From a virus (taxonomy: Duplodnaviria > Heunggongvirae > Uroviricota > Caudoviricetes): a DNA stretch of 5,969 nt. Each line of letters opens with the position of its first letter. The stretch's first letter is position 1. The stretch lies in IMG/VR virus record IMGVR_UViG_2671181189_000007; one strand, written 5' to 3'. Position numbers and translations under genes: made by a program. The notes below the pieces were generated by a model. The model ran no database searches. It saw only the letters and a list, made by a program, of their open reading frames with translations, and was not told the origin of the DNA. Of this stretch, positions 3,358 through 3,615 are shown piece after piece.

Positions 3358-3615
3358 TCAGCGCAGCGCCTCCTGCACCAGTTTTTCAAACTTTCCGACT
3401 CTGGTTTCCAGCTCTGCCACACAGTCCACCAGCTCATCTACTGCTTTCTGTGCGCGATGCTTCGCCTGCATCAGTTCCCGAAGCGCGGGTACCATATCTT
3501 TACGGATAGCATCTTTTGTTATGCCCGTTTTTTCGAGTTGTTCAGCATGACGCAGCATTTCCTGCGCGTGTTTACGCAATTGTTCAGGGGTAAAAGTCAT
3601 TGTCTGGTTGTTCAA
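3358..3615 (-). CDS. Hypothetical 85-aa (or 80-aa) highly charged, helical protein in the nin position; function unknown
   Basis: Start is either TTG at 3615..3613 (overlapping the helicase TGA stop as TTGA, with GGAG 7 nt upstream) or ATG at 3600..3598 (no SD). Lys/Glu/Arg-rich and predicted helical. Not recognised. Confidence 0.5.
   Translation of the reverse strand: MNNQTMTFTPEQLRKHAQEMLRHAEQLEKTGITKDAIRKDMVPALRELMQAKHRAQKAVDELVDCVAELETRVGKFEKLVQEALR

Follow-up and report, generated by a model that had tools for sequence, protein, structure and literature searches.

A small gene for a predicted coiled-coil protein between the replication genes and ninH of a phiP27-type E. coli prophage

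With moderate confidence, we interpret the 85-codon open reading frame at 3358..3615 (minus strand; orf85 below) as a real early phage gene that starts at a TTG codon, is translationally coupled to the gene before it, and encodes a self-associating, non-enzymatic coiled-coil protein that works by binding a partner. The gene lies in a window of 5,969 nucleotides, the whole stretch of DNA analysed here, which belongs to a lambdoid E. coli prophage of the phiP27 type. The frame is present in the list of open reading frames with the strand, length and 85-residue product that a first-pass annotation had given it.

The protein is already catalogued, without a function, in RefSeq (identical copy WP_001064799.1, a PGAP "hypothetical protein"), in PHROGs (PHROG 2565), and as L20 of the Stx2e phage phiP27 (NP_543072.1, 93% identical, annotated "unknown"). 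There is no difference in kind between its sequence and those of L20 and PHROG 2565; the start is annotated at an ATG in phiP27, versus the TTG favoured here. A search of the literature found nothing on this protein, and we would place orf85, as an unnamed member, in the known class of small accessory genes found in nin regions. The additions made here are the start-codon call, the relationship of two PHROG families through a shared domain, the finding that the gene recurs in the interval between the replication genes and Q, and the identification of a rusA remnant beside it.

Gene order in the window and coding status of orf85

Every gene of the window is encoded on the minus strand, and from the helicase loader to the antiterminator gene Q they follow one another without gaps, each cistron overlapping the next. 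The first is a DnaC/IstB-like helicase loader (5000..5947; Pfam IstB_IS21, E 1.8e-15), which PGAP calls an "ATP-binding protein" in the identical RefSeq copy and starts at 5878. Its TGA overlaps the ATG of the gene for a DnaB-type replicative helicase of 463 amino acids (3612..5003; Pfam DnaB_C, E 3e-72; PGAP "replicative DNA helicase"), the N-terminus of which also matches the DnaB N-terminal domain (Pfam, E 2.4e-5). After orf85 come a 31-codon remnant of rusA (delta-rusA, 3263..3358), identified by DNA and protein alignment with intact rusA, then ninH (3063..3263, ATG at 3263; Pfam Phage_NinH PF06322, E 3.6e-26) and the Q antiterminator gene (2690..3070, ATG at 3070; Pfam Phage_antitermQ PF06530, E 5.8e-54), both with coordinates from PGAP. 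The helicase and NinH had been named as the neighbours of orf85 in the first-pass annotation, and the Pfam matches bear this out. The junctions from the loader to Q read, in order, ATGA, TTGA, TGATG, TGATG and ATGCGTGA, the last being the 8 nt by which Q, from its ATG, overlaps the end of ninH. Beyond Q, a run of N (2207-2547) takes the place of four tRNA genes present in the RefSeq copy, and is followed by genes for a holin (1915..1700), a 209-aa open reading frame (1696..1067), a lysozyme (1001..468) and Rz (486..67).

The 501 nt around orf85 are 100% identical to a prophage of E. coli O121 strain 201805972 (NZ_CP119441.1), and a match covering at least 80% of these 501 nt occurs in 9 of 5,426 complete E. 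coli genomes. The identical RefSeq prophage adjoins mlrA and is partly degraded, with IS911 insertions and a truncated terminase.

The reading frame of orf85 bears the marks of selection on a protein. Its dN/dS is 0.042 against phiP27 (dS 0.67, dN 0.028), 0.130 against a Klebsiella phage homologue, 0.165 against Hafnia phage yong2 and 0.208 against PhiR49_2. The two out-of-phase sense frames over the same stretch give values of 0.7 to 3.2, and antisense frame 1 has a low dN/dS, which is to be expected where an antisense frame is in phase with true codons. Far from being absent or broken in close relatives, the 85-codon frame is intact in 87 of the 88 close loci scored, the exception being the frameshifted GB089 copy. 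Since these low ratios and intact frames go together with a match to PHROG 2565, orf85 is a genuine phage gene under strong purifying selection. Two plus-strand frames over the region (3317..3550 and 3457..3741) were considered and rejected as Ser/Cys/Ala-rich antisense frames.

A chance or decaying frame without a functional protein, left behind in a degenerate prophage, could appeal to the decay seen elsewhere in this lineage (the IS911 insertions and truncated terminase of the identical RefSeq copy) and to the frameshift in GB089. It accounts poorly for the purifying selection and the 87 intact loci, for the strong PHROG HMM matches, and for the retention of the gene in the inducible phiP27, in many Stx phages and in three genera. 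We give this reading almost no credence; judged by the count of intact frames and the dN/dS values, it is effectively refuted.

Start codon and overlap with the upstream gene

Two start codons were considered for orf85. The first is a TTG (3615-3613) that overlaps the TGA stop of the helicase gene (3614-3612) in the tetranucleotide TTGA (3612..3615, minus strand), an overlap to which the first-pass annotation had correctly drawn attention. A Shine-Dalgarno-like GGAG (3624..3627, minus) lies inside the 3' end of the helicase gene; it was described in that annotation as 7 nt upstream of the TTG, and is indeed there, at a distance of 8 nt. The second candidate is an internal ATG at codon 6 (3598..3600, minus), found 15 nt downstream of the TTG as had been stated, and no Shine-Dalgarno motif precedes it. 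Existing annotations are divided between the two, PGAP choosing the TTG and the GenBank annotation of phiP27 using the internal ATG.

Comparison of relatives, which had been proposed as a check, favours the TTG, as the first-pass annotation did. The TTG is present in 87 of the 88 close loci scored, all except the frameshifted GB089 copy. The internal ATG has been lost in three variants, to ATC in the PhiR49_2 clade (about 68% identity; PhiR49_2 itself and many Stx2a phages), to TTA and to ACA. Along the five codons from the TTG to the ATG, changes are largely synonymous: ACA has become ACC in 10 loci, ACG in 3 and ACT in 1, CAG has become CAA and AAC has become AAT, with ACA to ATA as the single non-synonymous change. 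The GGAG is conserved both in close relatives and in the clade of about 68% identity, and at the equivalent place Hafnia and Klebsiella carry GGAGG and AAGGA, in each case a purine-rich motif about 9 nt upstream of the start.

More distant relatives retain the geometry of the overlap with other start codons and other upstream genes. In Hafnia phage yong2 the start of the homologue is a GTG that shares bases with the stop codon of a small and unrelated gene (GTGA); in two Klebsiella loci it is an ATG, joined in the same way to the gene for a 292-aa replication-type protein (ATGA). Because the TTG is invariant, the ATG is not conserved, the codons between them change almost only synonymously and overlaps of the same NTGA type recur elsewhere, we prefer the TTG as the probable start of orf85. 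For annotation, this would mean that the start in phiP27-type phages should be placed at the TTG overlapping the helicase stop and not at the ATG used in GenBank.

The gene also has the features expected of a coupled pair, namely a start/stop overlap and a Shine-Dalgarno-like motif within 5-10 nt. A four-base overlap that persists through changes of start codon and of upstream gene is as expected under translational coupling, and we infer such coupling of orf85 to its upstream gene from the overlaps and the Shine-Dalgarno motif. In the window, ribosomes finishing the helicase gene would then reinitiate at the TTG, and the orf85 protein would be made together with the replication proteins. A link to the helicase gene in particular, as the first-pass annotation had it, does not generalise, as distant homologues follow genes for GpA-type initiators or other genes.

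The rusA remnant and the size of the nin interval

The DNA between orf85 and ninH had been described as a 91-nt spacer (3267..3357). The interval is in fact 94 nt (3264..3357), not 91, because ninH starts at the ATG at 3263 in PGAP, and it is filled by the 31-codon rusA remnant. The alignments show that these 94 nt are the stump of an internally deleted rusA and not a spacer. Delta-rusA consists of the first 9 codons of rusA (MRHEFVLPW) fused to its last 22 (LVRDHYVPGGKPGIKITEPESI), and these termini align with intact RusA in both protein and DNA alignments across an in-frame gap of 89 codons in which the whole conserved core is missing. A sensitive DNA search with 3370..3180 finds matches in hundreds of E. 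coli prophages, in each case to the 3' end of a rusA gene immediately preceding ninH. The remnant is fitted tightly between its neighbours; its ATG shares one base with the TGA of orf85 and its TGA shares one base with the ATG of ninH.

All 19 loci that carry the deletion have the same 96 nt of delta-rusA without a difference. This identity indicates a single deletion event, and for the same reason it permits no statement on selection on the peptide. PHROGs and NCBIfam contain no match for the 31-codon product, and with 89 internal codons gone, the conserved core among them, it cannot be a resolvase. What survives is only a short in-frame linker cistron, and the stretch before ninH, hitherto "intergenic", should be annotated as a rusA remnant. 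A GGAGG (3369..3373, minus) in the final codons of orf85, placed 10 nt before the ATG that follows, is the probable ribosome-binding site of whatever cistron comes next.

That next cistron differs among close relatives. It is an intact rusA in about 26 loci, delta-rusA in 19, and Q itself in at least 35, including phiP27; the TGATG junction after orf85 is found in every close relative except one locus in which Q is frameshifted (L003). The group of phiP27-type phages therefore has one to three genes between the replication genes and Q. The first-pass annotation called this a minimal nin region, and the interval is small, with still smaller ones in relatives, though part of its brevity here comes from the recent rusA deletion. 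No sigma-70-like promoter was found between 2900 and 3800, in agreement with the earlier remark that no convincing promoter precedes ninH. Terminator-like matches were at chance level, no Rfam family or repeat was found, and the junction showed no stable RNA structure; with all of these scans negative or at chance level, a reading of the region as a cis-acting element was rejected.

In lambda, the nin region holds about ten genes. Orf85 resembles the lambda nin genes (ren, ninA to ninI) in lying in the rightward early (pR) operon, after the replication genes and before Q, in its small size, and in its tight packing with overlapping stops and starts. It is also adjoined by NinH and by the remnant of RusA, the functional analogue of NinG/Rap. 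In sequence it is unrelated to any of the lambda nin genes, and no nin family of Pfam or NCBIfam matches it. The phiP27-type Stx phages illustrate how far a nin region can shrink, down to one small gene between helicase and Q, so that a single gene, orf85, could conveniently be used to ask which functions, if any, a lambdoid phage requires between replication and the late switch. The question bears on the timing of Shiga-toxin expression.

Protein family, predicted structure and possible function

Orf85 matches PHROG 2565 with an E-value of 2.7e-32 (113 bits; residues 2-83 on profile positions 121-202 of 204), and PHROG 2539 with an E-value of 1.4e-17. Two distant stand-alone homologues (P0127 and P0131) match the same positions of PHROG 2565. 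A HMMER search of 1.84 billion representative proteins returned 33 clusters (50% identity) with E up to 0.001. When three probably spurious repeat-rich proteins and short fragments of the orf85 clade are set aside, these fall into two forms, a stand-alone protein of 80-93 aa, and proteins of 130-265 aa, represented in PHROG 2539, that carry the domain as their C-terminus. Identity between stand-alone and long forms is about 35%; in a closer relative, P0124, the shared domain is 57% identical to that of orf85 and is preceded by a different N-terminal extension. In an alignment of 24 members, K39, P43 and D64 are invariant, A24, L41 and D60 are nearly so, and a T/S-P-E motif occupies residues 9-11.

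Further searches added little to this set. A second homologue search with the alignment recovered almost only the close E. coli clade again, a locus search of the genome collection with a closer alignment gave 5 loci, and tblastn of 50,697 phage records gave 34, all of them orf85-type hypothetical proteins and none from an organism named lambda or P22. As far as these searches reach, the family is small and confined to phages. In Pfam no match of orf85 reaches its cut-off (best 19 bits versus 33), and NCBIfam has nothing significant. The first-pass annotation had called the protein unrecognised, and so it stands: Pfam, NCBIfam and tblastn placed it in no known nin family, and no confident match to a known nin protein emerged. 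BLOC1_2, TMF, WXG100 and ZorA came up in Pfam, NCBIfam or PADLOC and were rejected as compositional, sub-threshold coiled-coil noise.

The product had also been described as small, charged and helical. Structure prediction, which had been suggested as a check, agrees. The AlphaFold2 (AF2) model built from the 24-member alignment is one continuous helix from residue 10 to 84 (mean pLDDT 86.8, rising to 94-98 over residues 41-85; pTM 0.48). As a monomer model, a single helix can reveal neither the oligomeric state nor a fold-back of helix 10-28. Across the 24 members, hydrophobic positions follow a 3-4 spacing at 13, 17, 20, 24 and 27, and after a variable, hydrophilic stretch at residues 28-36 the spacing resumes at 37, 41, 44, 48, 51, 55, 59, 62/63, 66, 69, 73, 76, 79/80 and 83/84. 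Strongly hydrophobic columns include 13, 20, 37, 41, 48, 59, 62/63, 66, 69, 76, 79 and 84; columns 17, 24, 27, 44, 51, 55, 73 and 83 are small or mixed hydrophobic. The protein is thus predicted to be one long amphipathic helix with a coiled-coil signature. A profile search of PDB sequences with the same alignment gave as its best match a designed helical protein (E 0.021), which was rejected, and Foldseek of the model against the PDB produced no match with E below 9, an uninformative result that is expected for a single helix.

The long forms put the same helix in a different setting. In the AF2 model of one of them (P0147), a winged helix at residues 8-80 is followed by a small zinc-ribbon-like element, a disordered linker and a helix at 169-236. 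Several of the long forms are predicted to have a winged-helix-like N-terminal domain, some with an added zinc ribbon. The two PHROG families, 2565 and 2539, can accordingly be described as sharing one coiled-coil domain, which occurs alone or fused to a winged helix. The N-terminal domain of P0147 gives weak Foldseek matches (E 0.03-0.4) to PadR-like regulators, to RTP of B. subtilis and to BlaI, and the predicted architecture of the long forms, an N-terminal winged helix and a long C-terminal helix, is also that of PadR-like and RTP-like proteins. In those winged-helix families the C-terminal helix mediates dimerisation. With such weak structural matches, no sequence similarity, and no winged helix-turn-helix DNA-binding domain in the AF2 model of orf85 itself, the resemblance does not imply membership; as an analogy, it hints at the way in which the helix may function. 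In the long forms the domain might serve for dimerisation and nothing else, and if so, the stand-alone copy could be a modulator of such proteins and not a binder of host factors.

A stronger version of this idea treats orf85 as a detached dimerisation helix that pairs in mixed coiled coils with PHROG 2539-type winged-helix regulators, whether encoded by its own prophage or by a co-resident one, and thereby works as a dominant-negative or an anti-regulator. The domain is the C-terminal helix of proteins with a predicted winged-helix N-terminus in most aligned members, and one contig carries a split form, with a 122-aa gene overlapping an 81-aa gene, which would suit such a pairing. Against it, neither a long-form gene nor a separate homologue of the N-terminal domain was found in the window, in the annotated stretches of the identical prophage or in the examined parts of the other phages bearing the stand-alone gene (tblastn E > 0.1). 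The identity of about 35% between the two forms is, moreover, low for heterotypic coiled-coil pairing. We regard this explanation as very doubtful.

The genomic surroundings of the family bear on two further explanations. The first of these holds that orf85 is a replication accessory factor, which binds the DnaB-type helicase or the DnaC-like loader of the phage and modulates helicase loading or activity, a role that would account for its translational coupling to the helicase gene. Every copy in Escherichia, Shigella and Stx phages lies directly after a DnaB-type helicase gene, with the TTGA overlap, and homology between prophages ends just past the orf85 stop, as if helicase and orf85 travelled as a block. 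The divergence from PhiR49_2 that affects orf85 also starts within the last ~70 nt of the helicase gene. Outside this group the association is lost. The upstream neighbour is a RepO-like protein in Klebsiella and a small unknown gene in Hafnia (homologues of 54-68% identity), and in more distant contexts a GpA-type initiator (three contigs) or DUF551, none with a phage DnaB gene adjacent; in a further context it is a 254-aa unknown protein after RepO-DnaB. In 933W-like phages long forms are encoded far from the replication genes, in the leftward early (pL) operon, where cI and kil/gam flank them. The window and PhiR49_2 have helicases that are 94% identical and orf85 proteins that are 67% identical, so that the two do not diverge together; this disparity, with the drop in identity near the 3' end of the helicase gene, points instead to orf85 alleles being exchanged semi-independently of the helicase. 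A helicase-bound accessory factor is in our estimate unlikely.

The second looks downstream, and proposes either that the protein modulates Q antitermination or that the cistron is a translational leader, setting the amount of Q, rusA or ninH product by reinitiation. It draws on the 35 or more loci, the viable phiP27 among them, where the stop of orf85 and the start codon of Q have one base in common (TGATG), and on the GGAGG just ahead of this junction, within orf85. Of the stand-alone contexts recovered, all but one place the gene between replication genes and Q, and in five distant ones it is 0-2 genes upstream of Q. A nin region adjoins Q by definition, however, so that proximity is weak evidence, and the Q proteins found with the gene come from two families, PF06530 and PF06323, that are unrelated to each other. 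A cistron that was no more than a leader would not maintain a dN/dS of 0.04-0.2 over its full length, nor keep K39, P43 and D64 invariant in 24 divergent members. The long forms of the pL operon, too, speak against a role tied to Q, being far from it; another long form is found in a nin region, before DUF968 and Q. On balance we consider a late-switch function, in either version, quite improbable.

The reading we prefer remains that of a coupled early accessory protein that binds a partner. The orf85 protein would self-associate as a coiled coil and bind another macromolecule through a conserved polar face, and would be neither an enzyme nor itself a DNA binder. Its partner may belong to the host, or be a factor that many lambdoid phages share. 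Such a partner seems more likely to us than the DnaB-type helicase or one type of Q, because the protein is tightly conserved while the family occurs with unrelated replication modules and with two unrelated Q families, and because its pL copies lie near host-takeover genes; this choice of partner is the weakest step of the proposal.

A more specific proposal, which we advance as speculative and think unlikely to be right in full, is that the orf85 domain is an unrecognised, phage-specific coiled-coil module that captures a conserved host protein through a surface formed by K39, P43, D60 and D64. The target could be a replication, transcription or defence factor, for example, of Enterobacteriaceae and Pasteurellaceae. 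The stand-alone form would then be an inhibitor or adaptor, and when fused to a winged helix, the domain would anchor this target to DNA. If binding to a host factor is borne out, orf85 would be a new small phage effector, and of the accessory functions encoded between replication and Q, phiP27-type phages would have retained host capture alone, so that it would matter for lytic growth. A helicase-linked role keeps some probability, since all copies in E. coli directly follow a DnaB-type helicase gene.

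An uninterrupted overlapping gene chain

The genes running from the helicase loader through the helicase, orf85 (the 85-codon gene at 3358-3615), delta-rusA (a 31-codon rusA remnant) and ninH to Q are joined by overlaps at every junction (window 5003 to 3063, minus strand). These overlaps read, in order, ATGA, TTGA, TGATG, TGATG and ATGCGTGA, and there are therefore zero intergenic bases across about 2.9 kb. The TGATGCG junction 3' of orf85 is common to loci in which rusA comes next and to loci in which Q comes next, which gives it the appearance of a recurring boundary between modules.

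Divergence and decay of orf85

Despite the near identity of the adjoining helicase (protein 96% identical to that of phage phiP27, with DNA windows mostly 0.9-1.0 identical), orf85 shows high synonymous divergence from its phiP27 counterpart, with a dS of 0.67 and a dN of 0.028. Because of this disparity, the alignments suggest that alleles have been exchanged at orf85 under strong constraint on the protein, as expressed in the low dN. Among the close loci examined, the sole disrupted copy is the homologue in E. coli GB089 (3085-3343 of that locus), which is annotated as a frameshifted pseudogene. The genomes of S. flexneri SFBU1023 and E. coli ECMA0423 have, in addition to a full copy, a second, truncated one at another location; these truncated copies retain residues 40-85 only, are 96% identical (match at 4001-4138 of the two loci), and are presumably prophage remnants.

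Two plus-strand ORFs of 77 and 94 aa (3317-3550 and 3457-3741) overlap orf85, are rich in Ser, Cys and Ala, and are open in relatives too. The simplest explanation for the low dN/dS seen in the antisense frame that is in register is that it mirrors the codons of the sense strand, and both ORFs were therefore judged to be artefacts and rejected as genes.

Long-form relatives

Long-form proteins, such as gp10 of Shigella phage 75/02 Stx (L008 3536-4249; PHROG 2539), carry a CxxC...CxxC segment in the middle. At E 1e-9 to 1e-6, this segment hits the zinc-ribbon portions of PHROGs for phage endonuclease VII, HNH and Lar-like restriction-alleviation proteins, which hints at nucleic-acid binding or a place among anti-restriction functions for the long forms. 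In the pL operon of metagenome contig SRR13837163_142914 (L102 4651-5246), a 122-aa gene and an 81-aa orf85-like gene overlap by 19 nt; the pair looks like a long-form gene (winged helix plus coiled coil) that has been split in two, or else a sequencing frameshift.

The region beyond Q

The run of 341 N between Q and the holin gene (2207-2547) is, as judged against the otherwise identical RefSeq prophage, masking and not a gap in the phage, because four tRNA genes (Ile, Arg, Thr and Gly) occupy its position there. Between the holin and lysozyme genes lies a minus-strand ORF of 209 aa (1067-1696), for which Pfam, NCBIfam and PADLOC returned no family match; it matches PHROG 1085, a family of unknown function (E 1e-73). 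The O121 RefSeq copy carries an IS911 element in the slot of this ORF, between the holin and lysis genes.
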